Assembly: GCA_946527885.1 (NCBI GenBank)
Contig: CAMMYO010000001.1
Location: 578-64,577 of the forward strand
Reading direction: 5' to 3'
Length of the DNA: 64,000 bases
Origin: an uncultured Candidatus Saccharibacteria bacterium
Lineage (GTDB): Bacteria; Patescibacteriota; Saccharimonadia; Saccharimonadales; Saccharimonadaceae
The notes beneath the pieces were generated by a model. The model made no database searches. It saw only the letters and a list, made by a program, of their open reading frames with translations, and was not told where the DNA came from. Within the stretch, counting starts at the first letter, position 1. Each line of letters opens with the position of its first letter. A program made the position numbers and the translations under genes. This document shows, in pieces, positions 531-43,188 of the stretch.

Positions 531-1220
531 TCACATTACCCAAAAAGCTAAAATAAACAATCCTAGCACCAAGAAGCCGGCGCCAGACGTCACCTGTGTG
601 AATCCTCTATTCTTTAGGCGCCACCTTTGCGCGGCAACCACGCTACTACCACTCTTGATGCGCAACTTCAAAACAAACATCGGCAAAACACTAAGCAACG
701 CATAGCCGAGCAGGGTAACTATCTGGTAATTCTCTGACATCTGTACGATTGCATTTCCGGCTACGATATAGAGCGCAATACTGATCGGCATTTCGGCGAA
801 CGCACTTAGCATTCCGAGCGAGAACGCACTGATATCGTCGTTAACTTCGCGAGATTTTTTGCGAATATAACGGACGAATGAGCGTGGCAACCATAACTCG
901 GTGCTACCTTGATTGCGATAATAGAGCGCCCACATCACAATGCTAGTTGCCAGTAACGCGCCGATTGTAATCAATAGCCAAGTAGTATTCATTTTGCCGA
1001 CGAAAATATGGCTAATAAAGTAACAGCAGGTGCCGACCGCAAGTAGATTGATTGCTCCGGCGCCCCAGATATAACTCTTGGCGAGATAGCGGGTCTTGCG
1101 GCGGCGGTGTTTGCCGAGGCTAGAATGGTACAACAAAATTAAGCCACCCAAATTAAGTTGCAGGGAAGCCTGAACTAGGCCTACTAGTGCAATTGTCGCG
1201 ATATTTAGTAAATCGCTCAT
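531..1220 (-). CDS. polytopic integral membrane protein, unknown function
   Basis: 229-aa ORF with about 6 hydrophobic helices and positively charged loops. Ends in TGA-T. Confidence 0.65.
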   Translation of the reverse strand: MSDLLNIATIALVGLVQASLQLNLGGLILLYHSSLGKHRRRKTRYLAKSYIWGAGAINLLAVGTCCYFISHIFVGKMNTTWLLITIGALLATSIVMWALYYRNQGSTELWLPRSFVRYIRKKSREVNDDISAFSLGMLSAFAEMPISIALYIVAGNAIVQMSENYQIVTLLGYALLSVLPMFVLKLRIKSGSSVVAAQRWRLKNRGFTQVTSGAGFLVLGLFILAFWVM

Positions 1221-1268: not shown

Positions 1269-1277
1269 TGCTAGAAT
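1269..1277 (+). promoter_or_regulatory. extended -10 element (TGcTAGAAT) placed 6 nt before ATG 1284
   Basis: TG-c-TAGAAT at 1269-1277, then tggcgc, then ATG. Same geometry as about a dozen other genes in the window. Confidence 0.45.
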
Positions 1278-1283
1278 TGGCGC

Positions 1284-2765
1284 ATGAACTGTGTGCGAAT
1301 CCTAAAATTTGCTCTTTTGTGACTGTCAATTTTTGCAGCGGTCGCAATATTTCGTCCGAATTTTTGTGCCGCCGCAGAATATCATTTCGAAATTTACGCG
1401 ATTAATGCCGGTTTTAAAAATGCAAACGATTCGCAAAATTATGACTTTATCCAGATTCGGCGCCGCGGCGAAGCAGAGCTGTCGCTCGACGACTTAAGGA
1501 TAGTCTACAAAAATAGCTCAGGCAATCAGGCTGGCGAGTTTACTTTTCCACCTGGCGCAAAACTAAAACATGGTCTTTTGACGCTCGGTTTCTCGAAGAG
1601 TCCGCAATACGCGGACTACGTGGGTTCTGGCCTAACTTACTACTTTTCTTCGTCCGGGCTTGCCTCGACCGCTGGCGCCATCCAGCTTTATGAGAAAGAT
1701 GCTCTAATCGATGAGCTTTGCTGGGGGAAAGATTTTTGTGCGCAAAAATATCCCAAATTTAGCACTAGTGATACCGACAACTATTCTTTGCGCCGTTGTG
1801 ATGGGGAATGCGAGTCTGCCTTCGAGCAGCAAAAGTACTACCCAGAAATCGATCTTGCCGCAATCGAGCTAGCGCCTATAAAAGAAAACACCGTATCTTC
1901 GCCGTGCGAAAACTTGCGTATTACAGAAGTGCTTTCGTACTACCGACAGGCTGTGTCGGAGCAGTTTGTCGAGCTATATAATTCCGGCGCCGAATCGGTC
2001 GATTTATCGGGCTGCCGCATCGGCTATAAGAATAAACAGTATCCTCTCGACGGCGTACTCTTGTCGGGCAGTTACAAGGCTATTCGGTCCGCAGATTTAA
2101 CCCTGGTCAAAAATCCGAGCGTATATGCCGAGCTGAGTATCCTTGACGCGAGCGGAGAAATAGTTTCATCTATGAAATATTTACACGGACAACGCAAGCT
2201 GACCTCTTATGCGCTGTTCGATATTGGAACCGAACAGGAAAATTGAAGCCTCACTTTTGCGCCTACTCCAGGTGCGCCAAATCAATATCAAGAATTTCAA
2301 AGTTGCCCAAGCGGCAAAATTATCAACGAGCTAACCGGCAAATGCGTCAAAATTGTAGACGATGCCGAAACGGTCTGTCCGGAAGGGAAGTATTTGAATC
2401 TTGTGACCGGCCGCTGCAAAAAGATCGAAGAAGGAACGACTTCCGAATGCAAGGAGGGCTATTATCGTAATCCGGAAACCGGCCGCTGCAAGAAAGTTGT
2501 CGCCGCAAAAACCTTAACTCCGTGCGCGGAAGGTTATGAGCGTAACCCTGAGACCAATCGCTGTCGCAAGATTAGCACTAATGACGCCTCGCAATATTCT
2601 ATCGAAGAAGTCGAAAAACTAGATCCGTCTACAACAGAACAAAAGCAAGTGTTTATTGGCGGAATTGTACTACTGGTCATGGCGGGCATTTCGGTTATCT
2701 ATATTGTTTTTCAGTATCGCCAAGAAATCTCGAAGCTTTTTCGTAGATTCAAGAGACGCAGATGA
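1284..2765 (+). CDS. secreted/anchored surface protein: signal peptide, two lamin-tail (LTD) domains, four Cys-repeats and a C-terminal TM anchor. The frame is interrupted by in-frame TGA at 1320-1322 and 2244-2246 (readthrough/recoding or pseudogene).
   Basis: A single frame is open from ATG 1284 to TGA 2763 (followed directly by TAG) apart from the two TGAs. N-terminus is MNCVRILKFALL-X-LSIFAAVAIFRPNFCAAAEY. LTD signature is FVELYNSGAESVDLSGCRIGY. The junction reads DIGTEQEN-X-SLTFAPTPGAPN. Repeats are of the form CxEGYxRNPETGRCKK. The track shows only the fragments 1578-2246 and 2394-2765. Confidence 0.6.
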
Positions 2766-2777
2766 TAGAATAAATTC

Positions 2778-4143: not shown

Positions 4144-4908
4144 TTATTCTTCGCTCGTTTCGGATTCTTCTTCCTCTAGGAAGTCGTAGTTGCCGCCCGT
4201 TTCAAGACCCGCTTCTTTGAGCTTTTCGTTGATCTTTTCTTCGATCTTTTCGCGCAATTCGTCTTGCGTTTCAGCCGAAGCTACATCGACTGCCTCGCCA
4301 TTGATGAAGAATGAAGGGGTGCCGGTAACTTTGCTGTTCTTGATGCCTAGGTTGTAGTCGAAATTGATTTTCTTCTCGATGCTCTTGTCGGTCAAATCTT
4401 TGCGGAATTTCTCAACATCGCCTTCCGGTGCAATTTCCTGGAATAATTCAGCGAACTTGTCCGTGCGTGTGCTACCGCTCAAAACATTCCAAGACGACTG
4501 ATTGCTATACAGCGTTTCGAGCATTTGCCAGAAATAGCCCTGGAAGCCTGCGCTTTCGACGGCGGAAGAAGCTGCGCGTGCATTTTGGTGGCCGCTAATA
4601 GGGAAGTTACGAAATACGAAAGCTACGCGATCGCCGTAAGCCTTTGTAAGGACGCTGATGCGAGGCATAACTGCGGCGCATCCTGGGCACTGCAAATCTG
4701 CGTATTCAATAAATACAACTTCCGAGTCGGCTTTACCGCGTACATGTTCGTCAATATCGCCAGTATATTCGCCGCCGTGGACGATTTTGTTCGCATCATA
4801 CTGACTATAGTCGATGACATCACCGGATTTTTGCAGGAAAGAACTGACGACTAGACCGCCGAATAAGAGAATTAAAACTGCTACTACTGCTATTGTGAAC
4901 TTATTCAT
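4144..4908 (-). CDS. membrane-anchored DsbA-like thiol:disulfide oxidoreductase (thioredoxin fold)
   Basis: 254 aa. N-terminal TM anchor, CPGC active-site motif (LQCPGCAAV), acidic C-terminal tail. Confidence 0.75.
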   Translation of the reverse strand: MNKFTIAVVAVLILLFGGLVVSSFLQKSGDVIDYSQYDANKIVHGGEYTGDIDEHVRGKADSEVVFIEYADLQCPGCAAVMPRISVLTKAYGDRVAFVFRNFPISGHQNARAASSAVESAGFQGYFWQMLETLYSNQSSWNVLSGSTRTDKFAELFQEIAPEGDVEKFRKDLTDKSIEKKINFDYNLGIKNSKVTGTPSFFINGEAVDVASAETQDELREKIEEKINEKLKEAGLETGGNYDFLEEEESETSEE

Positions 4909-9150: not shown

Positions 9151-9903
9151 ATGGCTAGAAGCGTCTCTTATCGGGCGCGCCGCATTATTGGGCTGATAGC
9201 ATTGCTGCTCGGTTTCGCGGTATTTTTGTGGCAAAATCCGGCAGCCTATCAGGATATTGCTGCCGACGGAGTCATTAACTCTCCAAAAGCAGAAGATATT
9301 CCACTCAAGGCAGAGCAGACTGAAACTGACTCATTGCTCGCCGTTGATGTTTTAAACAGTTTGGCGGTCAAAGAAAAAGATAAAAGTCAAAAATACTATC
9401 GCAAGCTTTTCTATGATAGCTGGGGTACGACCGTGTCAGGATGTAATACTCGCGAGGCGATTTTGGCGCGCGACTTAGACGATATCGAATTGCGCGATTG
9501 CAAGGTTCTTTCTGGCGTTCTGGATGATCCCTATACGGGCAAAGTTATCGAATTTGAGCGCGGTCAAGCTACGTCGAATGCGGTTCAAATCGACCATGTT
9601 GTGGCGCTGAGCAACGCTTGGGCTACGGGTGCCTTTGCATTTGACGACGAAAAACGCTACGAAATCAGTCAGGACCCACTAAATCTACTCGCGGTTGACG
9701 GACCAGCGAATCAAGACAAATCTGACCAAGACGCCGCCGACTGGTTGCCGTCAAACGAAGCATTTCAATGCCAATACGTGGCTCGTCAAATCTCTGTAAA
9801 ATATAAGTATGTTTTATGGGTTACTCCATCGGAAAAGGCGAAAATGATGGAAGTTTTGTTGCGATGCCCGGACGAACCTACTCTAGGACTAGAAAATCTT
9901 TAA
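9151..9903 (+). CDS. secreted/anchored His-Me finger (HNH, DUF1524-type) nuclease
   Basis: N-terminal signal anchor. C-terminal QIDHVVALSNAW...NLLAVDGPANQDKSD...DWLP motif typical of DUF1524 extracellular nucleases. Confidence 0.6.
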   Translation: MARSVSYRARRIIGLIALLLGFAVFLWQNPAAYQDIAADGVINSPKAEDIPLKAEQTETDSLLAVDVLNSLAVKEKDKSQKYYRKLFYDSWGTTVSGCNTREAILARDLDDIELRDCKVLSGVLDDPYTGKVIEFERGQATSNAVQIDHVVALSNAWATGAFAFDDEKRYEISQDPLNLLAVDGPANQDKSDQDAADWLPSNEAFQCQYVARQISVKYKYVLWVTPSEKAKMMEVLLRCPDEPTLGLENL

Positions 9904-24415: not shown

Positions 24416-26323
24416 TTAATTATCGTGCCAATATTTCTTGCCACCAAGAATATCGTAGGTTAGCAGCTCGTAACTACGCATAAGCTCTGCATTGTCCTCG
24501 AATTCGCGACCGTCAACCCAAGTTTGCGCCAAGATCGGCTCAGCACTACAAACGTCGTCCAATAAGTAATAGCGCGAATTCTTTTGCCAGCCCAACTCAT
24601 TAAGCATCGTATTTATCATGCAGTTTGGCGATGTTGTCGGCAAATCATTATTTTTGAAGCCAGCATCATAGTTCGCGTAGAAGAAATAAGGAGTAATGCG
24701 TGACAAATCGCGTACCTCTTTTTCTTCGTGCTCATTGGTCAAGCTATACACGCCCGGAGAATGGTCGCCGTAGAAAAGTACGACCACCTTCTTTTCGAGC
24801 TGATCGAGCTCACTGATAAACTCTCCGAGATACTCGTCTGAACTATGGATAGTTTGCATATAGGTCTCAATTTCGCGTCGCTTAGACTCGTCGAGCTGAG
24901 TCGTATACTCGTTGTCGAGCAAGTTGAAGTTGTGCGTCTCGTAGTTTTCGTAATTGTATGGCGTGTGGTTCTGCATCGTGATTAGGCCGACAACTTGTTT
25001 GTCGCCGCCTTCGCGTAAAGTTTTCAAAACTTGCTGATAAGCAGAGCGATCGTTAATGTACTCGGAATTGCCGTCATGTTCGTCAAAATCCATTTCTAGC
25101 TCGGTAATAAACTCATCAAAGCCCTCATTCTTGAGCGCGATATTGCGCTTGTACATGCCGCCATTAAACGGATGAATCGCCGTGGTTGTATAACCTTCAT
25201 CTTTCAGCATGCTTGCAATGGAAGGCGTTTTCCCGCTTTTTGGAATTAAAGCTGTATATGGCACGGTATTTACCCAATAATTCGTCAGCCCAGTAAAGGT
25301 TTCAAACTCAATATTTGCGGTGCCACCACCATAGTCCAGCGTATACATCATGCCGCTCGGATATTGACTCTGAATGCGGTGCAAGTTTGGCGCCACTTCG
25401 CCGCCATCATGTGGGTAATAATCAGTAAAACTCTTCCCATTAAAACTAAAATCTGGATCAAAGAACGACTCGTTCAAGATAATTACGACGCTAACGTTTT
25501 GATCGCCAATCGCTGCGCGCTCGGTATTCTTTTCGCTCGCAATCTTGGTATATTTTTTCTCAATTTGCGAAATAATCGCCTCGTCGTATCCGTTCGGCTC
25601 TTCTAGCTGAAGTTTCTGTAGGTTGTACAAGAAGCCCAAAATAAAACCATTTTCATCGTAGTTGCGGTTCTGATTCCAAGCTGTAAAGCGCGTACCTAGA
25701 AAAATATCCTGATATCGCGAGCCGTCATTGTGGCGCGCAAAATCGCTCGCACGATAAAAACCGAGCATACCAATCACTAAAACCGCTAGACGGATACCTA
25801 AACAATATTTTTGCACAAAGTTACTTGCGCGCTTCGGCCGAGTCAAATGTAGGCGCCGCGCAAGCTTTTTATTAAAGAGAATGGTTAGCGTGATAACTAT
25901 CGCAATCGCCAACAGCAGTCGAACGATTGTCCAAATACTTACGAACTTTGATAGAGAATGCGCTTCGCTAGCTAGCTGAAAATCTTCCGGCAATAGCGGA
26001 GTGCCGCGCGAATTGTATTTCGCGATGTGAATGTAGCTCAAGATTGTTAGAAAGACCCAACTTGCGCCGACCGTTGTTCCGGCGGAGCCAACCAAGCCCC
26101 AGATCACGCAGAGTAATAGATACATTAGGAGTGAGTTAAAAAGAAAAGGGCGTGGATTGCTAAAGATAAAGTTCCACGTTCGCCACATGTCGTGGACGAA
26201 ATAGCGATATTCCAAAAACCAAGTCAAGAGAATAGCACCTACCATCAAAAACAGCAACGAGCAAATGCAATACTTTTGCCGATCAGTCAATTTCTGCCGC
26301 CATAAATGCTTAATTTTCTTCAT
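24416..26323 (-). CDS. LtaS-family sulfatase-fold phosphoglycerol/phosphoethanolamine transferase
   Basis: 635 aa. Five N-terminal TM helices and an extracellular sulfatase domain (ILNESFFDP, GGTANIEFETFTGL, MQNHTPY, FYGDHSPG). Confidence 0.75.
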   Translation of the reverse strand: MKKIKHLWRQKLTDRQKYCICSLLFLMVGAILLTWFLEYRYFVHDMWRTWNFIFSNPRPFLFNSLLMYLLLCVIWGLVGSAGTTVGASWVFLTILSYIHIAKYNSRGTPLLPEDFQLASEAHSLSKFVSIWTIVRLLLAIAIVITLTILFNKKLARRLHLTRPKRASNFVQKYCLGIRLAVLVIGMLGFYRASDFARHNDGSRYQDIFLGTRFTAWNQNRNYDENGFILGFLYNLQKLQLEEPNGYDEAIISQIEKKYTKIASEKNTERAAIGDQNVSVVIILNESFFDPDFSFNGKSFTDYYPHDGGEVAPNLHRIQSQYPSGMMYTLDYGGGTANIEFETFTGLTNYWVNTVPYTALIPKSGKTPSIASMLKDEGYTTTAIHPFNGGMYKRNIALKNEGFDEFITELEMDFDEHDGNSEYINDRSAYQQVLKTLREGGDKQVVGLITMQNHTPYNYENYETHNFNLLDNEYTTQLDESKRREIETYMQTIHSSDEYLGEFISELDQLEKKVVVLFYGDHSPGVYSLTNEHEEKEVRDLSRITPYFFYANYDAGFKNNDLPTTSPNCMINTMLNELGWQKNSRYYLLDDVCSAEPILAQTWVDGREFEDNAELMRSYELLTYDILGGKKYWHDN

Positions 26324-26416: not shown

Positions 26417-27880
26417 ATGAAAAGTAAAGTTCATTTTTCGGTCATCCCGCTAGCAATCGCCGTTGCATATCTTTTTGCTGCCATTGTCGTGCGTTTTGTG
26501 GGGCTCGCCATGGATCTTCCGCAATGACTGTGAATCTTTGTGTTTGTTTTTAGTCTTTTGGCTCTTTTCGCTCGAAATTTGCCAAGAATCCTGCTATCGT
26601 TTCTGGCTGGCTTTCTTGTGGGTTTTATTCAGCACGCGAACTATCTCAAAGGTCTGAATGATATTACTAGTCATATCGGCAAGAGCGTTCAGATTGAGGC
26701 TCAAATCACGCATGCGCCAGAAATAAAAAATGGCTCACAAACCCTGCGAGCGAACATTATATCCTTTAATTATAGCATAAACGATATAAAAAGTCAAATT
26801 TATCTATCGCTACGGTCGCAAACCGAACTGAAGCAGGGCGACGCGGTCATTGTTCGCGGGGAAATAATGCCGGGTTTCGGCAGCTACGTAGTTTCGATGC
26901 GTCAGGCGAATCTAGTCGCAATTCGACCTCGGGCGCCAACATTGATCGATTGAGCTCGGACTACTTTTTCGTCTCGATTAGAGGGCGTGTTTTTGGATGA
27001 AAAATGCTCATCGCTCGCGCTCGCATATCTTGTCGGCGACAAGCAGGGAATCGATGAGAACTTTCTAGATCAACTGCGCGCCGTCGGACTTTCGCACATA
27101 ATCGTAGCTTCTGGCTTTCACCTGGCAACTATCGTAGGCGTCATTCGGCGCCTTCTTGGTAAAGTATCGCGTTTCGCTGCGACAACTGGCTCGATTTTAC
27201 TAATGGTTTGCTATATTGTGCTAGTCGGTTTAAGTGCGAGCATGCTACGAGCGAGCATCGTTACAATGTTGTCGATTTGCTTCGGTTATTTTGGTCGTAG
27301 ACTGCATCCGTGCCGAGCGATAATTTATGCTGCGACCATCTCGTTGTTGTTTAGGCCAGACTTTCTGACTGACGCGGCGTGGCTACTATCTTTCGCATCG
27401 TATATTGGAATCGTGATATTTCGACCGATTATTCAAAAATTCTTCTACGGTCGACAGAAACCGCCCGCTCTTTCGGATATGATTTTGACTACGATTTCAG
27501 CCCAGCTGGCCTGCACCCCGATATCGCTCTTCTTTTTTGGTAGCATATCGTTTTTGGGTGTTTTGGCAAACATACTCATCTCTCCGACTATTCCAATCGT
27601 GATGGGTGCTAGTTTCATGGTAGTCATTTCGCCTTCGGCCGTTGCGGGGTTAGTCGCGGTTCTCGCAAAGGGAATTCTTCGTTTGCAAATGCTAGCCGTG
27701 AGCTTTCTCTCCGAATGGCGCTGGGGTATTCTTGTGGTCGATAAAAATGAGCCGAGAGTACTGCTGCTTTATGTCGGAATTGTGCTACTGATTCTAGCGA
27801 TGACTCATCGCGAACGCTTTCGCTTTCGTCGACGCCGACTAGATAAAACGTCAAAATATGGTAAAATATATTCATGTTAA
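26417..27880 (+). CDS. comEC: DNA internalisation channel ComEC (DUF4131 plus competence domain, no beta-lactamase domain). The frame is interrupted by in-frame TGA at 26525-26527, 26531-26533 and 26951-26953.
   Basis: One frame is open from ATG 26417 to TAA 27880 apart from three TGAs. It reads ...AMDLPQ-X-L-X-IFVFVFSLLALFARN... and ...RAPTLID-X-ARTTFSSRLEGVF...LAYLVGDKQGID...GLSHIIVASGFHL. The track shows only the fragments 26540-26953 and 26987-27880. Confidence 0.65.
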
Positions 27881-28278
27881 TCCGTTCCGAGTCAGAGATG
27901 TTGGCTTTTGGTGAGCGCGTTGCGTCTCAACTCGAGGCGCCTATTTTGATAGAGTTAGTCGGCGATGTCGGTGCTGGCAAAACTACCTTCACGCGCGGTC
28001 TAGCGCACGGTCTTGGCGTAAAAGAAGCAATTACCTCTCCTTCATTTACGATTTCAAAGTCTTATCGCGGCGAAAAAGCGGATTTAGTTCACTATGATTT
28101 CTATCGCCTTGGCGATCCTGGCATTATGCTCGAAGACTTGGCTGAGTCAATTTCCGATCCGAGAGCTGTTACTGTCGTGGAATGGGCGGACAGTATTCGT
28201 AATATTCTGCCAGAGCAACATAAGACTATTATTATAAAATATATCGACGAAAATACAAGGGAGGTAATTGAGCGATGA
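27874..28278 (+). CDS. tsaE: tRNA t6A37 biosynthesis ATPase TsaE
   Basis: GDVGAGKTTFTRGL Walker A, SPSFTI, HYDFYRL. Ends in TGA inside an ATGA overlap with tsaB. Confidence 0.9.
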   Translation: MLIRSESEMLAFGERVASQLEAPILIELVGDVGAGKTTFTRGLAHGLGVKEAITSPSFTISKSYRGEKADLVHYDFYRLGDPGIMLEDLAESISDPRAVTVVEWADSIRNILPEQHKTIIIKYIDENTREVIER

Positions 28279-28607
28279 AGCTATATCTCGACACTTCGAC
28301 CGCGCAAACCGTTTTGCGCTTGGACGATAAAGAATATCTGTGGGATTCTGGCCGAACCTTGGCAAGGGATTTACTAAAATACATCCATGATTGCTTGGCC
28401 GAGCAGGGTGCAGACTGGACCGATTTAATGGAACTCCACTTTTTTGCTGGCCCAGGCAGCTTTACAGGGCTTCGCATTGGTGCCACGGTCATAAATACGC
28501 TTGCCGATCAACTCAAAATCCCGCTCTATAACCAGAGAGGCGAAAAAGTAGAGCTCGTCATGCCTGAGTATGGCCGTCCGGCGAATATTACTCCGCCGCG
28601 CAAATAG
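28275..28607 (+). CDS. tsaB: TsaB-like protein, truncated to the N-terminal half
   Basis: 110 aa. MKLYLDTS...GPGSFTGLRIGATVINTLA. Confidence 0.75.
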   Translation: MKLYLDTSTAQTVLRLDDKEYLWDSGRTLARDLLKYIHDCLAEQGADWTDLMELHFFAGPGSFTGLRIGATVINTLADQLKIPLYNQRGEKVELVMPEYGRPANITPPRK

Positions 28608-30279: not shown

Positions 30280-31128
30280 ATGAGCGAGAAAAGCGCTAAT
30301 CTTCAGGGTGGTCAAAATACTGAGGAAAATCAAGAGAATAAAACAGATTATAATTTTCGCGCCGAAAATATCAATCAGCGTGATGAGTCTGCGCTTTTTG
30401 CGCACGTTCGCGAAGACATGGAAAAGCAGGCGATTGAACAGCGCCAGGCGAAACAAGAACTCCGCAGCCAGTACAAGCAAGAGAAGAGTGAAGCCGCGCA
30501 ACGGGCTCGCAGCGAAAAAGAAGCTGCCGCCAAAATGCGCGCCGCAGAAAAAACTCAGATTCGCGAGGCTCAGAAAGCCGTCCGCTTCACGCGCCGCCGC
30601 GAGCGCAATGCAAAAATCAAGGAATTCATTTTTGGCGGCTGGCACAAGTATGTCTTCTGGACTGTCATCTTTCTGGTTGTCGCAATCTCTGTAAAAGCAA
30701 TCATGTCCATCAACTTCAAAGTCGCCGAAGAAAAACAAGCCGAATATACATCAGAAATCGCAAAAACCAGCAATGAATATCTCGAAATGTATAGAGAGTT
30801 TGAAAAGACTAATGATGCGGGCGCTATGGTGTCAAAATATGAGGAGGTGCTCAAAAATACAACTCCGAATCAAATCGAGTATCGCACGGCTGCGATTCAA
30901 TACGCGAAAGTCTTGCAAATGGGCGGAAACTATAAAGAAGCAGTTGAACTGCTTAAGAGTATAGAAAAATATGCCGAATCGGACAGTGAACGGCGATGGA
31001 TTTATATTGGTATATATGAAGCTAGCAGATTAGACGATGATTTGTCTGCCGAAACTGAAAGCTATGGTAAGAAAATTCAATCACTAAACAAGTCGATAAA
31101 TGATGGAGACCCGTATGAAGAAGAGTAG
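30280..31128 (+). CDS. module A1: bitopic membrane protein with a charged K/E/A/R-rich N-terminal region, one TM helix and a helical TPR-like C-terminal domain
   Basis: 282 aa. TM segment is YVFWTVIFLVVAISVKAIM. Preceded by TGcTAAAAT plus 6 nt. Its 3' end overlaps the next gene by 14 nt. Confidence 0.75.
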   Translation: MSEKSANLQGGQNTEENQENKTDYNFRAENINQRDESALFAHVREDMEKQAIEQRQAKQELRSQYKQEKSEAAQRARSEKEAAAKMRAAEKTQIREAQKAVRFTRRRERNAKIKEFIFGGWHKYVFWTVIFLVVAISVKAIMSINFKVAEEKQAEYTSEIAKTSNEYLEMYREFEKTNDAGAMVSKYEEVLKNTTPNQIEYRTAAIQYAKVLQMGGNYKEAVELLKSIEKYAESDSERRWIYIGIYEASRLDDDLSAETESYGKKIQSLNKSINDGDPYEEE

Positions 31129-34100
31129 TACACGCGCAATATTAACGGCCGCTATTCTCGCGTTGGCATTCGGGGGGCGCACGAGTGCTGAGCAGGTTGT
31201 CGCGAATCCTCATGCCGGCTACTGCAATAAAACCTCCGAAGTGGCATTCAAGTCGTGGACCGATGAGCAGCACGGCTGTTTTTCCAGTGGTCTTGGCTGG
31301 GTTTACTATAAATTTTCTGACGAATTTCAGGCTCTAACGCCAGATAAGAGAAAAGAAATTATAAAACATTTGTTCGTGGGGCCAGGCACCAGTACGGGTA
31401 ATCTTACTGACGAATCGATGGTTGGCGGCGGCAATGGCGGCTGGTGGTCTGTAGCGGGTCTGAGCGATTGTTTTTCTAGCGCGCCTAGTCGCAAGAACCC
31501 TGACGGCTTCTACCGTTTTGGCATGATTCAATATAAAACCTCATCGTCATTCGAGGCGAGCGACTCCAACAGTGATGGCTGGAAGTCGTTTAGCACTCTC
31601 GTGTCCGGCGACGTTGCCGGTGCTATGCTTACTGGTAACCAGCCAAGAACTGCAACTAACGGTAGCTGGAGTACTGATCGTCAAGATGGTAGCGGAAACT
31701 TAGCCACCACTCATCTTAGCCAGGAAATTAGAATTTCGGGAACTGACACGGTAAATAATGCGACATATAATAAGTTCCTAGTGGCCACTGCTGTTAGTTT
31801 TACGGACGCTATAAACGACGAGGCTGCTGGCGGCATCAAGTCCGAGTATGATGAGATGTTAAATGAAACAGGGCTAAGCAATCACTGGGAACAAGATGGT
31901 GACGGCAAAGCGGTTATGTCGTTCTGTGGTTACGGCTCCGGTATAGGCGAACAAGATGCCTATTTCAAAGGCTCGGTCGCAATCAATATTGGCGGAACAT
32001 CCGTAGTCACAAGTAGCGATCCTGATGCAAATCCTATTCCGTCTGGGAGCAAAGAATATCCGACCAATGTTTCGAACCAAACCATCACGCTCACCTATAC
32101 TTCTCAGCCAGCCGGCTCGACAGCAAAGCCAAAATATTCGGTGTCGTACACGGTCGAAAAGCGCAACGCTGATGGCTCCTGGACGCAAGTTGGAACGGAT
32201 TCCAAAAATGACATTACGGCTAGCAATACTACTACATTCTCATCCACTACGAGTGGCAGCCCGCTAAATATTACGCTTAACTATGGCGAAGAGTATAAAA
32301 TTTGCGCCTATAATTCATACCACAGCAAGGCGACCTATCAGAATATCAATTATCCAGTCTACGGCAGTGTCCAAAAAGTTAGTGCCTGTGCTACGATTAC
32401 GCGCCCACTTCTGACTTCCGAGCTCCACAGTATGGCCTTTGCTAAAATCGATGGTACTCAATACAACTCAAGCCAAGACGGAACTGGTTCGATTGACGCA
32501 AACCCGTCCACTGCCACCATTGATCCAATTTTGGTTGAGCCGGGTACTTCGCATACGGTTGAGTTATGGAACAATCTGACCCGTACTAACGCAGTTTTTG
32601 ATACGACTTTTAATACTACCTATAACGGAGCAACATCGTCGGTGACCATGGCCAATCATGTAGGTAGCTACGATTTTACTCACCAGAATGAAACGGTTAC
32701 TTTACAACCGCAAGAGGAACGAGATTATTCGACCGAGCTTACGCATCCGGCTCAAGTTAATAACAGACCAGAATCCATCGGTTCGCGCACTTCAAAGCTA
32801 TCGTTTAAGATTCGTGGTAAAGATTTTGAATGTAACTCGGATTTTGGCAGTTACAAGAAATTTGGCGTCAAGGACGGTTATAACATGTCCATCGTCAAGG
32901 TAACGAACGGTCGCCAGACTGTCGGTACTACGAACTACGCTTACGATGGCGACGACAGCAATACGGTTTCTGTTTGGGCGAGACCTAACGATACTATTCA
33001 ATTTACGCATCTCGTTTGTGCGGGCGCGACTTATACAGCCTACAAAAAGAACGACACTGCGACGGAAGGAAAAACCAAATATATCGCAAGCGCCGCTAGC
33101 GACTTGAATACCGGTAACTTCCTGTATGGTTCTTCGTTTACGGCAGCGAATACTCAAAATCTCGTCACGGATCCGATTGGTAATTTCTTGAACTCCGACA
33201 AGGAAAAATCTCCTCGCTATACCTTGAGTGTAAACTCGCCTTCAAGCTCCTCGACTGCGGTTACTGTTAATGATCTCGGCTCTACGATTAGCCAGAAAAT
33301 GACCTGGTCGAATATTGCCTATGTTGGCGGTAATCTTGAGCGCAATGGCGGTAGCGACAAAGAGGCAACCGCAGAAGTAAAGATTCCATATAACTATGTC
33401 TTGAAACCATCCGTTTCGATTGGCGGCTCAGAAGACGAGCATGTTATGCCAGGCATGAATCTAAATATTTCCGGATCGTTGAATGTCGACGGTCGTCAAA
33501 ACAAAGACATTAAAACGAGCGACGGCATTCTTTTGGGCGCTTACGCCACTAATACGCGCGCTACTGAAACTCGCTTGATTGTATTTTCTTCGGAAAACGG
33601 AATGACATCCAGCGGCGTAAAGTATGTTTCTGGTGATGCCGGCCTAAGCGACGGAACACTCTGTAGCGAGGCGGCTGGATCGGTTAACTGCTCGTCGCAT
33701 TATCGTCTCAGTACTGAGAGCGGCGAGGTCTATGGTGGTGGCGATCATAGTAGTCTAATTAGCGGGACGCACACGGTTGCGCTCGACGGCATGAAGGTTG
33801 GTACGCATATTTGCGCCATTACCGCCAGTTATCCTGCCGATAGTCATGCGGCACCGACTGCTAATTTTCCAGACAACGCACCGGCTCTCGGTAGCAATAT
33901 CCCTAGCGGTTCATACTGGGCGGTATCTGCGCCGGCCTGTGTTACGGTAGCAAAAAAGCCAACTGTAAGTGTCGAAGGTGGCGATCTCTTTGTAAAGGGC
34001 GACATTATTGCGTCACACACGAAGCGCGGTCCAAATCCGGACGAAAATTACTTTGGCTCATGGGCGGAATACGGTGTTATCTCGACCGGCTCTATCTATG

Positions 34101-35029
34101 GCTTTAGCTCTGGTGCTGCTACCGCATACGCTGCGGGTGGCTCGTTAGTTAGCATAAATGAATCTAGAACTGCTGCTGGCATGTCGAACGCAAAGAGTCC
34201 CGCCGAAGAGGGTGAGACGCGCTGTCTCTATAATACGCAAACTTTCGCAAACTTAAACTGTATCGAGACAGGAGATGGTGCGATTGGAAATGTAGATGGC
34301 ACGGCAATTGCTTCGAAAGTATCGGCTTATGCTAGGGATGTAATCGCTCGCTTTACGCCAACCGACAAGACTAATAACGATCCATTTACCGGGAACATCA
34401 GCGGCTGTACCTTAGATGACGGATCTTATGTAAATGGCGACGGGAACAACAACTATAGTTGCCGCACGGACGGTATTGCAACCTTCTATCGTGATGGCGA
34501 TACGACGCTTAATGGCATTAGTAGTTTGTCGATGCCTCGCGCTGATAATAAGACTCTCGTTATCTTTATTGATGGCACGCTTACACTAAACGGAGACATA
34601 AAAATCAGCAATGGTTCATATTCTAGCGTTATGGATGTTCCGAACGTTGTCGTAATCGCTCGCAATATCAAGATTTCGCAAAGCGTAAGTACGATTGATG
34701 CGTGGCTAATATCCGGCTACAATGATGCGGCGGCAGAGGATGGCGAGATCGATACGTGCTACGAATATGCCGCTGACAGCTTAAACTCGGAGCGGTGCGC
34801 GAAGTCGCTTATCGTGAATGGTATGACTTTGGCTAAAAAACTGAGCCTAAAGCGTACCGCCGGTGCCGGCACAGACGAAAATAGCCAATCATTTGGCGCA
34901 AATCACTACATTAAACGAGCGGAAATCTTTAATTTGCCAGCAACAAATTACTATTGGGGCTATGGCAGTGCTTCGAAGAGCAACGCTATGCGCACTAACT
35001 ATATGCGCGAAATTCCATCGCGCTACTAA
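31115..35029 (+). CDS. module B1: giant secreted Cys-containing, Asn/Thr/Ser/Gly-rich protein (1304 aa), paralog of 35843-40264
   Basis: Sec signal MKKSSTRAILTAAILALAFGGRTSA/EQ, with GGAG 6 nt upstream. Long uninterrupted ORF. Conserved blocks shared with B2 include PTVSVEGGDLF, CLYNTQTF, IDAWLIS and RAEIFN...YYWGY...EIPSRY. Confidence 0.85.
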   Translation: MKKSSTRAILTAAILALAFGGRTSAEQVVANPHAGYCNKTSEVAFKSWTDEQHGCFSSGLGWVYYKFSDEFQALTPDKRKEIIKHLFVGPGTSTGNLTDESMVGGGNGGWWSVAGLSDCFSSAPSRKNPDGFYRFGMIQYKTSSSFEASDSNSDGWKSFSTLVSGDVAGAMLTGNQPRTATNGSWSTDRQDGSGNLATTHLSQEIRISGTDTVNNATYNKFLVATAVSFTDAINDEAAGGIKSEYDEMLNETGLSNHWEQDGDGKAVMSFCGYGSGIGEQDAYFKGSVAINIGGTSVVTSSDPDANPIPSGSKEYPTNVSNQTITLTYTSQPAGSTAKPKYSVSYTVEKRNADGSWTQVGTDSKNDITASNTTTFSSTTSGSPLNITLNYGEEYKICAYNSYHSKATYQNINYPVYGSVQKVSACATITRPLLTSELHSMAFAKIDGTQYNSSQDGTGSIDANPSTATIDPILVEPGTSHTVELWNNLTRTNAVFDTTFNTTYNGATSSVTMANHVGSYDFTHQNETVTLQPQEERDYSTELTHPAQVNNRPESIGSRTSKLSFKIRGKDFECNSDFGSYKKFGVKDGYNMSIVKVTNGRQTVGTTNYAYDGDDSNTVSVWARPNDTIQFTHLVCAGATYTAYKKNDTATEGKTKYIASAASDLNTGNFLYGSSFTAANTQNLVTDPIGNFLNSDKEKSPRYTLSVNSPSSSSTAVTVNDLGSTISQKMTWSNIAYVGGNLERNGGSDKEATAEVKIPYNYVLKPSVSIGGSEDEHVMPGMNLNISGSLNVDGRQNKDIKTSDGILLGAYATNTRATETRLIVFSSENGMTSSGVKYVSGDAGLSDGTLCSEAAGSVNCSSHYRLSTESGEVYGGGDHSSLISGTHTVALDGMKVGTHICAITASYPADSHAAPTANFPDNAPALGSNIPSGSYWAVSAPACVTVAKKPTVSVEGGDLFVKGDIIASHTKRGPNPDENYFGSWAEYGVISTGSIYGFSSGAATAYAAGGSLVSINESRTAAGMSNAKSPAEEGETRCLYNTQTFANLNCIETGDGAIGNVDGTAIASKVSAYARDVIARFTPTDKTNNDPFTGNISGCTLDDGSYVNGDGNNNYSCRTDGIATFYRDGDTTLNGISSLSMPRADNKTLVIFIDGTLTLNGDIKISNGSYSSVMDVPNVVVIARNIKISQSVSTIDAWLISGYNDAAAEDGEIDTCYEYAADSLNSERCAKSLIVNGMTLAKKLSLKRTAGAGTDENSQSFGANHYIKRAEIFNLPATNYYWGYGSASKSNAMRTNYMREIPSRY

Positions 35030-35103
35030 AATTGCGCGCCATTCCGCTTATGTGTTAAAATAAATTACAAGAGAACGCATGCATTTTTTGCAACGGAGGT
35101 AAA

Positions 35104-35865
35104 GTGCAAGGTCAAAATAACGAAAGCGGAAACGACTCCGCAGACTTGAATTTCAAGTCGTCCGATATTCAGCAGGGCGACGAAGGTCAGCTTTTTGTTA
35201 ACGTCGAAGGCGCCGAAGAACGCGCCGCTGAAGAAGCTGAAGCAAAAGCAAAAATAGAGGCTGAGGAACGTGCCAAACAGGAGGCCGAGCAACGCACTCG
35301 CGCCGCCGAGGAGCATGCCCGCCAAGTCGCCGAACAAAAAGCCGAAAAAGCCCGCCTTGCCAAAGAAAAGAAACTCGCCAAAAAAGCCGCCGGCTCCAAC
35401 GGCGCCAGCAAAAAGAAAAAAATCGCAATCGCCTCTGTTGCGGCTGTAGTCGTGTTGGCGGGCGTCGCAGCACTCGCTATATTCTCAACGCCAAAAGTTG
35501 ATGGTGACTCCGATGCCGATCCTAGCGAGATGCATGTCGATACAGAACGCGATTTTACTGCAAGAGCCAGGATTTCTGCTAACGAAGAGATAATTAGCAA
35601 ATATGAGAATGACCCGTATTTTGGAAAAGAAGAGGCCTATGCTGAATACGATAAAAATATCGAATCCGTCGGTGACGATAGGGAGGCAAAAACGGTCTGG
35701 AGGAATTTTAAAGTAGACTTTGCTTATAATTTTGTAAAAAACAAAAAAGAAGCGAAGGAGTTTTATGAGGAGATGTGTGCAATAGATAACATGACTGAGA
35801 AAGAGTCGAACTTGTGCATTAATCAAGAAAGGATTTTCTGGGATGACGAAAATGGGTCGAATTAG
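35104..35865 (+). CDS. module A2: bitopic membrane protein with the same architecture as A1
   Basis: GTG start after GGAGG. AEERAAEEAEAKAKIEAEERAKQEAEQR charged region, TM segment IAIASVAAVVVLAGVAALAIF, helical C-terminal domain. Overlaps the next gene by 23 nt. Confidence 0.75.
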   Translation: MQGQNNESGNDSADLNFKSSDIQQGDEGQLFVNVEGAEERAAEEAEAKAKIEAEERAKQEAEQRTRAAEEHARQVAEQKAEKARLAKEKKLAKKAAGSNGASKKKKIAIASVAAVVVLAGVAALAIFSTPKVDGDSDADPSEMHVDTERDFTARARISANEEIISKYENDPYFGKEEAYAEYDKNIESVGDDREAKTVWRNFKVDFAYNFVKNKKEAKEFYEEMCAIDNMTEKESNLCINQERIFWDDENGSN

Positions 35866-38800
35866 AAGATGTATATTCAGCTGCTTCTTAGTAGCGCTAC
35901 TGATTCAGTTGGCGTCAATATATAACGCATATGCGGCGCTGCAATTTGATACGGGCGGCGGCGGTGGCGCTAGTGGCTGTAGTGGCGGTACTGCGTTCTC
36001 GGCAAACTTTCCAAGTACTCAATCGATATGTCATTATCAGAACAGCAATATATTTTCTGTTCCTGTTTGGGTTGAATATAAGTTTTCTAATAATTTCATA
36101 AAAGCGGCTAGAAATGGCGACAGAACAGTCTTTAGCGCCGCTGATTTGCAAAATATATATAACGGCTTTTTCTTGTCGCCTGGCAATAACCGAGATGGCG
36201 GGGTAAAAAAGCTGGGTGGTGTCGAAAGCTGCGTGACTAGCGGCGGAAGCGGTTTTTTCCGACTAGCAAACCTAGAGGCAAAGTATAATTTCTTTTATGA
36301 CACTCAAGAAGGCAATGGGCATGCGCAAGAGGCGAAGTATTCTGATACGGCAAGCCTAAATGATATGGTTATATTCACGGTAGTTGCGCCGAAAGATGTT
36401 AACTACTATAACAACGTAGAATCTAAAAAAACTAATCCAAAGACTGCGGATGATTATTATGGGTCAATCTTGAGGTACGCCCCTATTGGAACAAATACTC
36501 TATACGGCTTTGATGGCGGTGCAGCTGGTCTTAATTCATGGCGTGTAGTTAACTACAATGACTATGTGAGTAGCTTTACGAGTAGCAACTTCACCAACAA
36601 TGACAACTGGGGGCAATACGTATATTACGGCGGAATTGACGGAACGCATCTAATCGCATCTGCTGAAGGTAGAGGCGCCTTTACTTCGCCGACTGTGAGC
36701 TCGGGAGAGCCTTACGCGTATAAAAAATATAAGCAACATGGCGGCTCGTGGGATTTGAATACATTTAACGGTAGACCTGGTGGTACTGTAGATTTGTCAT
36801 CTGGTGTCCGTTCTTTCTGCGCCTACCCAGAAAAAACTGAAAATACATACAGCGGGTCAACGAAAGTCTTCTACAAAAAGGGCGCCGCAGATGAGCAGTC
36901 ATCAGCTAATACGAGTCATGCAGTCGTCAACATTGCCCCAGAAGACGATACGGTTACTGTTGTAAAACAATACACTATTGGACGCGAAGGCAGCGGTACT
37001 ATTAATGCGAAGATTAAACGCGATTTAGACAATGATTGGATATCGTTCGCGCCGGGATCTAAAGACGAGACTGAGACCAAGTCGATTGAACCTGGCGGCA
37101 CGGTCGAGTTTTGCGCCGAAATGAAATACTACAAGAAGGCCGTTAAAGAGACCGGCGATCCTAATTATACGGAAGAAGGCGAAGCAAACAAATCCTGTCT
37201 AACCTTCTATCGCCCATATTACGTAACGGACATCGATGGTGCTATCGAGTCCAAGGTCTATGAAACGTCATCGCAGTCTAGCGCTTATGTCGCGTCGCCA
37301 AACCCTGTCGAACACGTAGACTACAAAAGTCCTAGCCTTTCGAAAGAAGTAATTGTCGACGAGCCATATGCCAAGGTAAACTTTACGCCATACATCTGCC
37401 GCCACAACAGTAAGTACGCCGCACAAGAAATCCCTAGTGGCGCTACCTATTCAAATAACTTTAAGTTGACCTATTACGAGGATGGCGCCTGGACAGTCTC
37501 TGGCGCAACTCCAAGAGCTGTAAATATTTCCATTGGCAAAGTTAGCAGTATAGACGGGACCTGTGAACGTAGCGGTGGGCCAAGCTGGCATACATTCGCG
37601 TCAGACATCACAAGTTCGCATGAAACGGGCGAGTTGCAGCCGGGCGAAGCTAAAACCTACAAGGAGTCGATTACTTACCCAGAGCGAGTCGATAATGCTG
37701 GCAACTCAAAGGCCGGAAATAAATCTGTCGATCTCGAGATCACCGTCCGCCGCCGCGGCTTCAAATGTGTTGGTTTCGAAGGAGGCTACAGCTTCTTCGG
37801 CCCTAGCAAAGGCGCCAACATGGCTAAGATTACTATTGCGGATTCTACTAATACCAACCTTAACGATAATAACCCTAACAGGCGCCAGGCTAGCACGGAT
37901 AATTATCCAGGTGGCGGAACGACGGATAACGCTGTTCTATTTACGAAACCTAATCGCAGAATTCGATTCGAGTATAATGCCTGCGCTGGCGGCGCCTATG
38001 CAGTGGCAAAGTCTAGCGAAGGCGACGGATGGGGCGACACGCAATTTATAATCTCGAATCCTAGTGATCCGAACGGTAATGGTTTGTTTGGTTTTCGTCC
38101 TGAATCTCAGCAGGATCTCGATGAGGGTAACAAGATTGTGCTTGAATATGGTAATACTGGAAATCTAAACAGAAACGGCTATCAGAAAAGAATCACGTCT
38201 AATCATGGTGCTACTCCAGCTGTATCTGCTCTAAATACCGCAATAGCCTCATTCCTGACGGACAAATATAGAGAGAACGAATATCCGATAAATAGCGGAA
38301 GTATGGTTTTGCCGAAATATACTCTCGCCGAAAAGCTTTGGTCTCCGGGTGGCAAATCTGATGGTTTGCCAATCGAATCCGACAATGTAGGTCAATCCAT
38401 CAAGCGTCAGATTGAATGGAAAAACCTCGAAATGAATTATGGCTCGAAAACGACAGGAGAAAATTCAGTGGCGACTGCAGAGCTGCGCGTTCCGTACAAC
38501 TACTATCTAAACCCTACTGTTGATATTAACTTTGGTAACGATTACTATGTGAGGCCGGGCCAGGTCATTGACAAGCTGGATATCGACCTCGGCGTCATGG
38601 ATCGTAAAAACGAGCAAGTTGGTGAAACATACGCCACGAAAATTAAACCGACAACAATCCAGGTGAGCTGGTTTAAGATGACTGGCAGCGTAGATAGTGG
38701 AAGCGTTTCGAGCAGCGGCAAGCTTAAGCGCGGCGAAATCGCGGCGAGATCTATTTGCAACGAGGTTTCATCGCGTGCTAGTGAATGTACCGAGGTGGAA

Positions 38801-40264: not shown

Positions 40265-40303
40265 GATTTTGTAATAAATAAAATGCTAATGTATAATAAA
40301 ACT

Positions 40304-41317
40304 ATGAGTAAAAGTGTGGGCAATCCGAAAAAGGGTTTCACGATTATGGAAGCCATGCTGTTCTTGGCGCTAACTGGCCTGGTTTTTGCTGGCGTCGTCG
40401 GCGGCACTAGAGGCAATATGGCACGTGAGCGCTATCGCGATTCTGTTCAGACTATCGCTACGGAGCTTCGTAATATCTATTCCCAGGTAGAAAATGTCGA
40501 AATTCCAGAGCATGACGATAATATCTGTGCGTCTTTCGAAGACGGTTCGACTCATTCAGCTGTTGCCAAACGCGGGCGTTCTGCTTGCGCGGTCTATGGC
40601 AAGCTCGCGCTAATCTATACCGAAGATGGCGTTTCGCATATTCAGTCGGCTACGGTTTTTGGTCGCGACTATTATGATCTGGAAGACAAAATTCGTGCAG
40701 CTCAAACCGATACCGAGATTACCGCTGTGCATAGCTTACTATGTCCTACCGGCTACAAGATAAATTCTATCGACTGTAGCTCAATCAACTGGGATGATAG
40801 TTCGATTGATCTGTCTAGTCTTAGCGATATCGACCAATATAAGGTTCTAAGTGCCGATGTTGGCGTATATGATACGGTCAGCGCAACGGTAAAAATGGGC
40901 TTCGAAATTGACGATTTTACGCCGCAATGGGGTGCAAGGATTATGACTCAGGGTTCCGATACGGAAGCATCGAGAGAAATGCGTGCCATGTTGCTGATTT
41001 TGCGCTCTCCACGCACTGGCGTTATTCATACTTATGTATATGAAAACGAAGCTAGCGATTCCGATATTCGCAATTTGGATTTGATCGGAAATTCGCGCGA
41101 CAATCTTAATACTTACGGCATTCAGGGTAAGCTAACGAAGGCTAAAGAAGCCAGCACTTTCAAGAAAGATGATTTTCGCATTTGTGTTGATGCCAGCGTT
41201 GAAACCGTCTACGACGGAAGTCGCCGCATGATCAAGGTTGCCCGAGACGCTCATAACGAAACCGGTGTTGAACTTGTAAATCTCGATACTGCTTCGGAGG
41301 CTGACACATGCCACTAA
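40304..41317 (+). CDS. large pilin-like protein 1 (337 aa)
   Basis: Class III signal MSKSVGNPKKG/FTIMEAMLFLALTGLVFAG with Glu+5. ATG 40304 lies 6 nt after TATAAT (40292-40297). Confidence 0.75.
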   Translation: MSKSVGNPKKGFTIMEAMLFLALTGLVFAGVVGGTRGNMARERYRDSVQTIATELRNIYSQVENVEIPEHDDNICASFEDGSTHSAVAKRGRSACAVYGKLALIYTEDGVSHIQSATVFGRDYYDLEDKIRAAQTDTEITAVHSLLCPTGYKINSIDCSSINWDDSSIDLSSLSDIDQYKVLSADVGVYDTVSATVKMGFEIDDFTPQWGARIMTQGSDTEASREMRAMLLILRSPRTGVIHTYVYENEASDSDIRNLDLIGNSRDNLNTYGIQGKLTKAKEASTFKKDDFRICVDASVETVYDGSRRMIKVARDAHNETGVELVNLDTASEADTCH

Positions 41318-43163: not shown

Positions 43164-43188
43164 TATAATAGAGTCAAGTAGGAGGAAT

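Follow-up and report, generated by a model that had tools for sequence, protein, structure and literature searches.

In-frame UGA codons in two envelope protein genes point to lineage- and gene-specific stop codon readthrough in Candidatus Saccharibacteria

Main finding

The analyzed stretch of DNA (the window) comprises 64,000 nucleotides (nt) of contig CAMMYO010000001.1 from an uncultured Candidatus Saccharibacteria bacterium and is part of a 78-kb metagenome scaffold (source sample SAMN02144230 / ERZ28612978). The organism is a Nanosyncoccaceae-like Saccharibacterium of the rumen, with the standard code in otherwise normal use. It includes a gene for a lamin tail domain (LTD) surface protein, interrupted by two in-frame TGA codons, and the competence gene comEC, interrupted by three. 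Comparison of the sequences shows these TGAs to be genuine, conserved or recurrent codons, specific to two gene families and one lineage and flanked by coding sequence under selection. They are probably (at a probability of roughly 0.7) read through in competition with the release factor RF2, almost certainly with tryptophan at codon 321 of the LTD gene, which would throttle the synthesis of two envelope proteins. The findings point to a lineage- and gene-specific recoding of UGA that would be new for the Saccharibacteria phylum.

Structure of the LTD gene

The reading frame that starts from ATG 1284 is open to the TGA at 2763-2765, which is directly followed by TAG at 2766-2768, and it includes zero frameshifts. 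A preliminary description of the same DNA had reported TGAs at 1320 and 2244, an otherwise open frame without frameshifts and a TGA-TAG end, and the sequence bears all this out. The product is a membrane-anchored protein of 493 amino acids (aa), or 494 if the last TGA is also read. The gene and its parts, all on the plus strand, are the following (TM, transmembrane; pLDDT, predicted local distance difference test score of the structural model):

1284..2768, plus strand: complete LTD surface-protein gene, a single frame that holds two TGAs and closes with the tandem stop TGA-TAG
1269..1277, plus strand: TGcTAGAAT, an extended -10 promoter element whose end lies 6 nt upstream of ATG 1284
1284..1376, plus strand: signal peptide with n-region MNCVRILK, UGA inside the h-region and cleavage-type motif CAAA/E, from the alignment of homolog signal peptides; model helix 2-22
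1320..1322, plus strand: in-frame TGA no. 1, codon 13, context TTG TGA CTG, in the h-region; the same codon is TGA in L001-L003
1386..1853, plus strand: N-terminal LTD-like beta-sandwich, residues ~35-190; Pfam LTD match sub-threshold (E 0.0033, 18 bits), pLDDT ~90
1896..2243, plus strand: lamin tail domain PF00932, residues ~205-320, with a Pfam score of 47.7 bits (cut-off 34.3) and E 2.2e-12
2244..2246, plus strand: in-frame TGA no. 2, codon 321, context AAT TGA AGC, in a column that otherwise is almost always Trp, bordering the LTD fold on its C-terminal side
2304..2564, plus strand: four ~24-aa Cys repeats CxxGxxxNxxTGxC, conserved beta-hairpins (C341-C427), translated only with readthrough of TGA no. 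2
2625..2714, plus strand: C-terminal TM anchor, residues 448-477, then a basic tail; model helix pLDDT ~88, kept in homologs
2763..2768, plus strand: tandem terminator TGA-TAG; the nearest orthologs end in TAG or TAA

The two lamin tail domains proposed earlier were recovered only in part. The second one passes the Pfam threshold, the match above the gathering score covering residues 206-299, while the first remained below the threshold, though it was modelled as a beta-sandwich. When the whole model of the protein was searched with Foldseek, the best matches in the PDB were the Ig-folds of lamin A/C, B1 and B2 (probability 1.00). Also the four Cys repeats, the TM anchor and the basic tail of the preliminary description were all found, in the sequence, in the model and in the homologs; the repeats matched no Pfam family. 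The residues around the codon-321 UGA are ...GTEQEN-x-SLTFAPTPGAPNQYQEFQ..., and the peptide ...LTSYALFDIGTEQEN-x-SLTFAPTPGAPNQYQEFQSCPSGK would be diagnostic of UGA readthrough in the LTD protein.

Conservation of the stops and selection on the gene

For the comparison, loci with the LTD gene came from 80 GTDB species representatives and 79 loci with comEC from metagenomes, to which three contigs of close relatives were added. All homologs and related loci belonged to metagenome-assembled genomes (MAGs) of Candidatus Saccharibacteria / Nanosyncoccaceae from the rumen and other animal guts, and one bovine rumen contig was 100% identical to the window across part of comEC.

The stops had been suspected to be read through rather than to split the gene, and the homologs agree with this: about 100 Saccharibacteria homologs were single proteins of 460-520 aa (~480), full-length across both sites and covering 92-100% of the LTD query. 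They did not occur as separate genes starting at a position equivalent to 1578 and ending at 2246. The segments both upstream and downstream of the TGAs were conserved and under purifying selection. After TGA 2244, the ratio of nonsynonymous to synonymous substitution rates (dN/dS) was 0.04-0.13 in all computable pairs (at least 10 compared, consisting of pairs of the window with its relatives and nine further species pairs sharing the TGA), and it was no higher than upstream. Synonymous sites were saturated in the compared pairs, with the TGA still retained.

The TGAs themselves were shared over the same distances. In L001-L003, contigs of three different samples with ~58% aa identity, TGA was present at the same two codons, and the frame ran on through the conserved Cys repeats, the TM helix and the tail to TAG or TAA. 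The database proteins of the three nearest relatives were fragments of 292-299 aa. Altogether 38 of the 80 GTDB species representatives had TGAs in the LTD gene, and the interruptions were all TGA, with no TAA, no TAG and no frameshift. The alignment of 85 orthologs, 84 of them counted at codon 321, had TGG in 63, TGA in 19 and TAT in two at this position, surrounded by the motif ..E.W.Q(T/S)Y.PTPG..N. Thus the second TGA is located where Trp is expected, as had been proposed (Trp in 63/84), and the aromatic residue, often Trp, that bacterial LTD proteins have before a (T/S)PGxxN motif corresponds to this column (W 63, TGA 19, Y 2 of 84 orthologs).

In-frame stops are the usual hallmark of a pseudogene, and a cultured Saccharibacterium can grow without ComEC (PMC10633639), so decay of the genes, or an error in sequencing or assembly, had to be considered. 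Because the same TGAs were present in independent assemblies, the homologs were full-length and dN/dS was low (0.04-0.13), these readings and that of two genes were excluded; the recurrence in 38/80 species representatives and the restriction of the interruptions to TGA likewise stand against a pseudogene or an error, and we regard both as very improbable.

In-frame TGAs in comEC

Like the LTD gene, comEC had been described as interrupted by TGA only, and three in-frame TGAs were detected in it:

26417..27880, plus strand: comEC, 487 aa, with DUF4131 (PF13567, E 6.5e-8) and Competence (PF03772, E 7.7e-44) domains; a -10 element supports the start
26525..26527, plus strand: in-frame TGA, codon 37; Trp is the commonest ortholog residue (18)
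26531..26533, plus strand: in-frame TGA, codon 39, shared with L086 and L146; the column, within a TM segment, is I/L/V
26951..26953, plus strand: in-frame TGA, codon 179, in a variable linker column (K/R/I/S)

A metallo-beta-lactamase domain was not found in the comEC of 26417-27880. The ComEC family was delimited with a hidden Markov model, as the single-linkage cluster had mixed in open reading frames (ORFs) of YebC. Across the family, TGAs were placed at codon 3 (18 genes), at the end of the first TM segment, in hydrophobic or aromatic TM columns and in several Trp columns, the further ones including columns with 45, 34 and 31 Trp. In most of the codon-3 genes, the ATG located two codons before the TGA is itself preceded, at 6-7 nt, by a -10 hexamer, which puts the TGA inside a leaderless ORF; for at least 10 distinct sequences of this kind the codon-3 TGA is real. 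The codon-3 TGA is ambiguous in the L040 group and in L095, where an ATG is present also downstream.

The ComEC of this lineage is a short form of 420-490 aa, and the orthologs of the basal clade described below bear instead a charged C-terminal extension of ~100 aa. On all loci, tRNA-Arg(UCG) with 34 and tRNA-Arg(CCG) with 28 copies were the commonest tRNAs after tRNA-Met. They were seen only once the comEC-centred loci L086-L163 were added, which suggests a conserved linkage with comEC.

UGA as a terminator outside the two families

Under the standard code the ORFs of the window are already long and densely packed, and when ORF lengths were compared with TGA, TAG or TAA as sense, nothing particular to TGA was found. 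Scans of stop usage and of ORF merges produced only two credible merges, the LTD gene and comEC. On the related loci TGA terminates 96 of the 970 conserved gene ends (~10%) and swaps with TAA and TAG within families. For example, the neighbouring 229-aa gene ends in ...AFWVM-TGA in the window and in ...AFWVM-TAA in two relatives. Also in the genomes that have TGA at codon 321 (W321), it terminates 19 of 255 conserved gene ends. Only ten of the 96 real TGA terminators are followed by C at the +4 position, and this avoidance is as expected if a release factor reads them. Because UGA ends about one gene in ten, we infer that a UGA-recognising release factor (RF2) is active in the organism. The genomes of the related loci have a GC content of ~47%, and 28 of the 96 TGA terminators have TAA or TAG within three codons downstream.

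The family scan covered 162 sequences (2.1 Mb), in which ORFs bounded by TAA and TAG only were taken in the best-supported frame, clustered and aligned, and internal TGAs were counted from the consensus start Met to the end of the conserved core. Sampling covered ~55 families, all from the window or from the surroundings of the LTD gene or of comEC. Internal TGAs were found in 46 of the 90 genes of the LTD family (62 sites) and in 33 of the 89 genes of the ComEC family (57 sites), or in 23/89 without the partly ambiguous codon-3 group. The 51 other families, with 1,186 genes, 289,483 residues and 2,477 TGG codons, had 19 TGAs, of which 15 were terminators with short extensions and four were singletons. 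The difference between the two families and the rest was significant (79/179 versus 4/1186 genes; Fisher p = 3e-72). In the other families of genomes belonging to the TGA-bearing clade (see below), 1,277 TGG codons stood against one TGA, and that one was upstream of a start.

Several apparent cases were rejected. Internal TGAs in the family of the 229-aa neighbour, in the 40283-41317 family, in RuvB, MetRS and others were 5' leaders, extended terminators or a masked run of N (L042). A split gatA at about 7300-7640 of L084, ~2-3 kb past the window end, was an assembly artefact consisting of an N-run scaffold gap and a frame change. An unfiltered Codetta-style tally placed R, C, S, L and G opposite TGA; these are one-nucleotide neighbours, and off-frame and antisense ORFs were responsible.

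If UGA stood for Trp throughout the genome (code 4), as it does in Mycoplasmatales and in the Patescibacteriota family JAKLIH01, TGA at conserved Trp columns of two genes would be accounted for, and such a reassignment is known elsewhere in Patescibacteriota (PMC13092985). However, UGA occurs at Trp positions in only two of the ~55 families, with 1,277 TGG against one TGA elsewhere; the standard code gives long packed ORFs; and the TGAs that end ~10% of the genes swap with TAA/TAG and avoid the leaky +4 C. The code has not changed genome-wide, and this explanation has hardly any probability left.

Lineage, positions and the inserted residue

In the neighbour-joining tree of the LTD proteins, none of the 31 species that form a basal clade, Nanosyncoccus spp. 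among them, had a TGA (0/31), while 42 of the ~54 sequences of its sister clade carried at least one TGA. The comEC genes of the LTD-centred loci followed the same division, for among the 11 that could be placed TGA was present in 9/9 of the TGA clade and in 0/2 of the basal clade. Parsimony on the LTD tree required at least 11 changes between TGG and TGA at Trp321 and at least seven changes for the presence of a signal-peptide TGA. The TGAs are thus restricted to one lineage and are recurrent within it. Members of the TGA clade are, for instance, L004 (CAMJQQ01), L024 (JAFWIP01), L027 (CAMKFS01), L016 (JAUNHY01) and L020 (CAVFJY01), and members of the basal clade L060 (JAZUNK01), L063 (JAZMZP01) and L068 (JAFRKC01).

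Two hot spots were evident in the LTD gene, the h-region of the signal peptide and Trp321. At the first the position varied among ~30 species (window residues 5-13, 22, 27, 28 and 36). At the second, the codon switched only between TGG and TGA within the TGA clade. The other invariant Trp column of the protein, W147 (TGG-G), had TGA in only 1/84 sequences, in comparison to 19/82 at W321 (TGG-C/A; p = 6e-6).

Opposite the TGA columns, Trp was the most enriched residue, 13.7-fold in LTD and 5.3-fold in ComEC, while Gly was at 0.6-fold, Cys at 1.5-1.7-fold and Arg at 0.7-1.7-fold. Insertion of Trp at UGA is accordingly the best-supported reading of the alignments, an identity suggested by the sites in W columns only. 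UGA is also the codon of selenocysteine. This residue can practically be set aside, as the aligned residue is Trp and not Cys (Cys 1.5-1.7-fold), no signal of a hairpin resembling a selenocysteine insertion sequence was found, one of the sites is in a cleaved signal peptide and the LTD protein is no redox enzyme.

In the signal-peptide region, TGA:TGG was 30:8 in the TGA clade and 0:10 in the basal clade. The combined density of TGA and TGG in this region was 2.0% versus 0.7% (p = 1e-5 versus the mature region). Because TGA outnumbers TGG there, while TGG exceeds TGA by three orders of magnitude in all other genes, it seems that UGA at an early position is preferred as such and is not a drifting synonym for Trp.

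Leaderless starts and the possibility of re-initiation

The hexamer TAnnnT ended 6-7 nt before the ATG in 19 of the 50 ATG starts of the window, in comparison to 3.6% of all ATGs; the preliminary description had noted this geometry at about a dozen other genes. The hexamers were mostly of the extended form TGnTAnAAT, with examples at 531-1220 (minus strand), 2778, 4144-4908 (minus strand), 6580, 14356, 24416-26323 (minus strand), 27874, 30280, 44991 and 52633. Among the LTD orthologs with an early TGA, the hexamer preceded the upstream ATG in 26/29 (6 nt in 25, 7 nt in one), and the geometry was present in 48/54 of those without an early TGA. Since the same arrangement recurs at so many starts, a major share of the organism's gene expression seems to proceed from leaderless mRNAs, and ATG 1284, with its -10 element 6 nt upstream, is taken as the true start, as first proposed. 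The arrangement implies an LTD mRNA that would be leaderless, with its 5' end at or next to 1284.

It is conceivable, even if improbable, that the TGAs simply terminate translation, followed by re-initiation or giving separate products. The early UGA would then end a short leader peptide, with a restart at a near-cognate codon shortly after it, and the UGA at W321 would yield a secreted two-LTD protein, which is plausible as a soluble product, the part with the Cys repeats and the TM anchor being made separately or not at all. Directly after 16 of the 29 signal-peptide TGAs there is ATH or CTG, possible weak starts, and in some ComEC (the L040 group and L095) an ATG is located a few codons past the codon-3 TGA. 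However, Ile and Leu are anyway the commonest residues in such hydrophobic segments, and many of the TGAs are followed by non-start codons (ACA, GCC, GCT, TCA, TTC, CTC). Leaderless mRNAs are without Shine-Dalgarno (SD) sequences for internal starts, and a restart after codon 13 would drop the charged n-region of the signal peptide. A separate C-terminal fragment would also be without a signal peptide, yet its Cys repeats of extracytoplasmic type are conserved (dN/dS ~0.1), and the TGA at codon 321 alternates with TGG only.

Nucleotide context and RNA structure

All 19 TGAs at W321 were followed by C or A (C 13, A 6); in comparison, +4 C was present at 10/96 terminators (p = 4e-7). The bases following the signal-peptide TGAs were mixed (A13 C7 G5 T4). 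At the two hot spots, the downstream folding energy of TGA orthologs was the same as that of TGG orthologs (p = 0.98 and 0.79). A GC-rich hairpin at 1331-1378 (plus strand; about -20 kcal/mol) begins 9 nt after TGA 1320. It was rejected as a stimulator, as its z score was -4.1 against mononucleotide but only -1.5 against dinucleotide shuffles, and it was absent from the nearest relatives. The Rfam search of the window detected only tRNAs.

Proposed mechanism and alternatives

In the most economical model, the UGAs would be decoded by tRNA-Trp competing with RF2. This could take place by near-cognate reading with the CCA anticodon, possibly raised by a clade-specific change of the tRNA or of RF2 at the base of the clade. 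Only part of the ribosomes would then finish the protein, and readthrough would be borne, or put to use, only by genes that can do with a small or conditional yield. ComEC is such a case, as growth does not depend on it and transformation does (PMC10633639). The likely consequence is that two envelope proteins, presumably related to DNA uptake, are throttled after transcription or made only under certain conditions. In the LTD protein, termination at Trp321 would produce a soluble, secreted form with two LTDs and readthrough a membrane-anchored form, and the two isoforms may both exist.

Some observations weigh against this model. The bias towards +4 C/A was the same in the TGG orthologs at W321, and the context there is therefore permissive rather than selected. 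No conserved cis-acting RNA element was found with the TGAs, and no gene for tRNA-Trp, tRNA(UCA) or a release factor was present on the 163 loci, including the ~9 kb extension of the scaffold. TGA terminators were not depleted in the TGA clade (19/255 versus 77/715; p = 0.14). Two or three leaky stops in series would mean a very low yield unless readthrough were efficient, and efficient readthrough would affect the terminators too. Codon 13 and two of the three comEC sites are in variable hydrophobic or linker columns, with which Trp is compatible only. A role of the LTD protein in DNA uptake is a guess from its domain type and from the recoding that it has in common with ComEC. There may also be further TGA-bearing families beyond the ~55 sampled.

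A related, more tentative possibility is that UGA is a regulatory codon, its readthrough being conditional on a clade-specific decoder or on a weakened or variable RF2. Selection would then have repeatedly placed UGA near the 5' ends of the leaderless comEC and LTD mRNAs, the LTD surface protein being taken as of a DNA-binding type. If this is true, the DNA-uptake apparatus would be made only when UGA termination is inefficient, or only in a subpopulation. Such a system would parallel the bldA/TTA regulon, with a stop as the regulatory codon, and would offer an extant case of the 'ambiguous intermediate' of code evolution in the Candidate Phyla Radiation (CPR).

A true switch by a dedicated or regulated suppressor, turning on the UGA-containing genes in certain states as in a regulon of the bldA/TTA type, is rather unlikely. 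The limits of the lineage (0/31 versus 42/54) suggest a single enabling change at the clade base, the excess of TGA over TGG (30:8) in the signal peptide and the occurrence in two functionally related families are as expected for a regulatory codon, and UGA-reading variants of tRNA-Trp are natural in many bacteria (PMC13092985). Against it, a suppressor tRNA was not found on the loci searched, which carried no tRNA-Trp locus. A suppressor that is constitutive and efficient is unlikely also because TGA terminators were at normal frequency and no TGA was present among the 1,277 Trp codons of the other genes.

Readthrough in competition with RF2, if correct, has several implications. For code evolution, it would mean that one and the same cell uses UGA as a terminator and, in specific genes only, also maintains it as a sense codon, a state postulated by theory and rarely observed. 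Codes with UGA as Gly occur in Gracilibacteria and Absconditabacteria, members of the same radiation. In regulation, the excess of TGA over TGG in the signal peptide and the clustering in the first ~40 codons suggest that an early UGA may act as an expression valve. Uptake of DNA through ComEC is characteristic of CPR bacteria, and conditional or very low ComEC in gut lineages would alter models of competence and nucleotide scavenging. In annotation, gene callers truncate or split such genes, and ComEC and the LTD protein are likely scored as missing, fragmentary or pseudogenised in rumen and gut MAGs. Genetic manipulation of Saccharibacteria has become possible (PMC10633639).

Comparison with known systems

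The phenomenon behaves as programmed or tolerated stop-codon readthrough and does not show the tested features of code 4, a selenoprotein or a pseudogene. Among the stop codons of bacteria, UGA leaks the most. In E. coli, UGA-C and UGA-A are the weakest termination contexts, as Poole et al. reportedly found in 1995, and the A1 protein of phage Q-beta is a product of programmed UGA readthrough. UGA is read as Trp at low level in bacteria (PMC7918605); in B. subtilis one TGA shows ~6% readthrough, and 19-54% with prfB mutations (PMC7918605). The likeness of the present case to the leakage in E. coli, Salmonella and B. subtilis and to Q-beta A1 consists of the competition between tRNA-Trp and RF2 that we propose, the UGA-C and UGA-A contexts found at Trp321 and the continued use of UGA as a terminator; as with A1, the functional product would need readthrough. 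Unlike those cases, the UGAs are here chromosomal, conserved or recurrent in dozens of species and confined to two cellular families. A gene often has two or three of them, mostly among the first ~40 codons of a leaderless mRNA (signal peptide or first TM helix), and no stimulatory RNA element was found with them.

Full reassignment of UGA to Trp in JAKLIH01 (class Minisyncoccia) is accompanied by a tRNA(UCA), no RF2 and no UGA terminators (PMC13092985), while Saccharibacteria have been treated as using code 11 (PMC10746230). The two cases share UGA at conserved Trp positions and the same broad phylum-level radiation. Unlike JAKLIH01, the present lineage (Saccharimonadia/Nanosyncoccalia) has kept its UGA terminators, and its other genes are without TGA at Trp codons. 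Natural variants of tRNA-Trp(CCA), namely G24A (Hirsh), A9C and a 4-bp anticodon stem, raise the reading of UGA (PMC13092985). Such variants could plausibly supply the trans-acting factor behind readthrough in one clade only, with the anticodon unchanged.

The survey of Belinky et al. 2021 (PMC7918605) similarly described in-frame stops amid coding-type selection, interpreted as readthrough. It was a general survey of close genomes (dS ~0.003-0.004) with dN/dS of 0.66-0.82, unlike the saturated synonymous divergence, the dN/dS of ~0.1 and the clear specificity for gene family and position found here. Saccharibacteria and ComEC are unmentioned in that survey, and no account of in-frame UGA in comEC, or of readthrough in Patescibacteria, turned up in full-text searches of the literature.

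Two further systems have partial similarities. In Streptomyces, bldA decodes the rare sense codon TTA with a dedicated tRNA. Also there a rare codon is present in a small functional set of genes and ties their expression to one decoder, whereas UGA is a stop codon that in the present organism continues to terminate other genes. The other system is prfB, in which an in-frame UGA-C early in the ORF is bypassed by a +1 frameshift with an SD-like stimulator, depending on RF2. A weak early UGA-C is common to both, but in the present genes the frame is unchanged.

Other features of the window

Seven consecutive ORFs on the same strand at 31100-44541 (plus strand; 1309, 253, 1473, 344, 279, 338 and 466 aa) had zero Pfam matches; the cluster is probably related to the envelope or to secretion. 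The ORFs of 1,309 and 1,473 aa were considered as RpoB and RpoC and rejected, as they had no Pfam match. A 110-aa ORF at 28275-28607 (plus strand), which overlaps the stop of TsaE (ATGA), matched only positions 27-85 of the 264 of the TsaD profile and looks like a truncated TsaB/TsaD-like gene. The ORF at 9151-9903 (plus strand), adjoining rubrerythrin, has the C-terminal domain of a GmrSD-type restriction endonuclease (E 2e-16) and is a possible defence gene.

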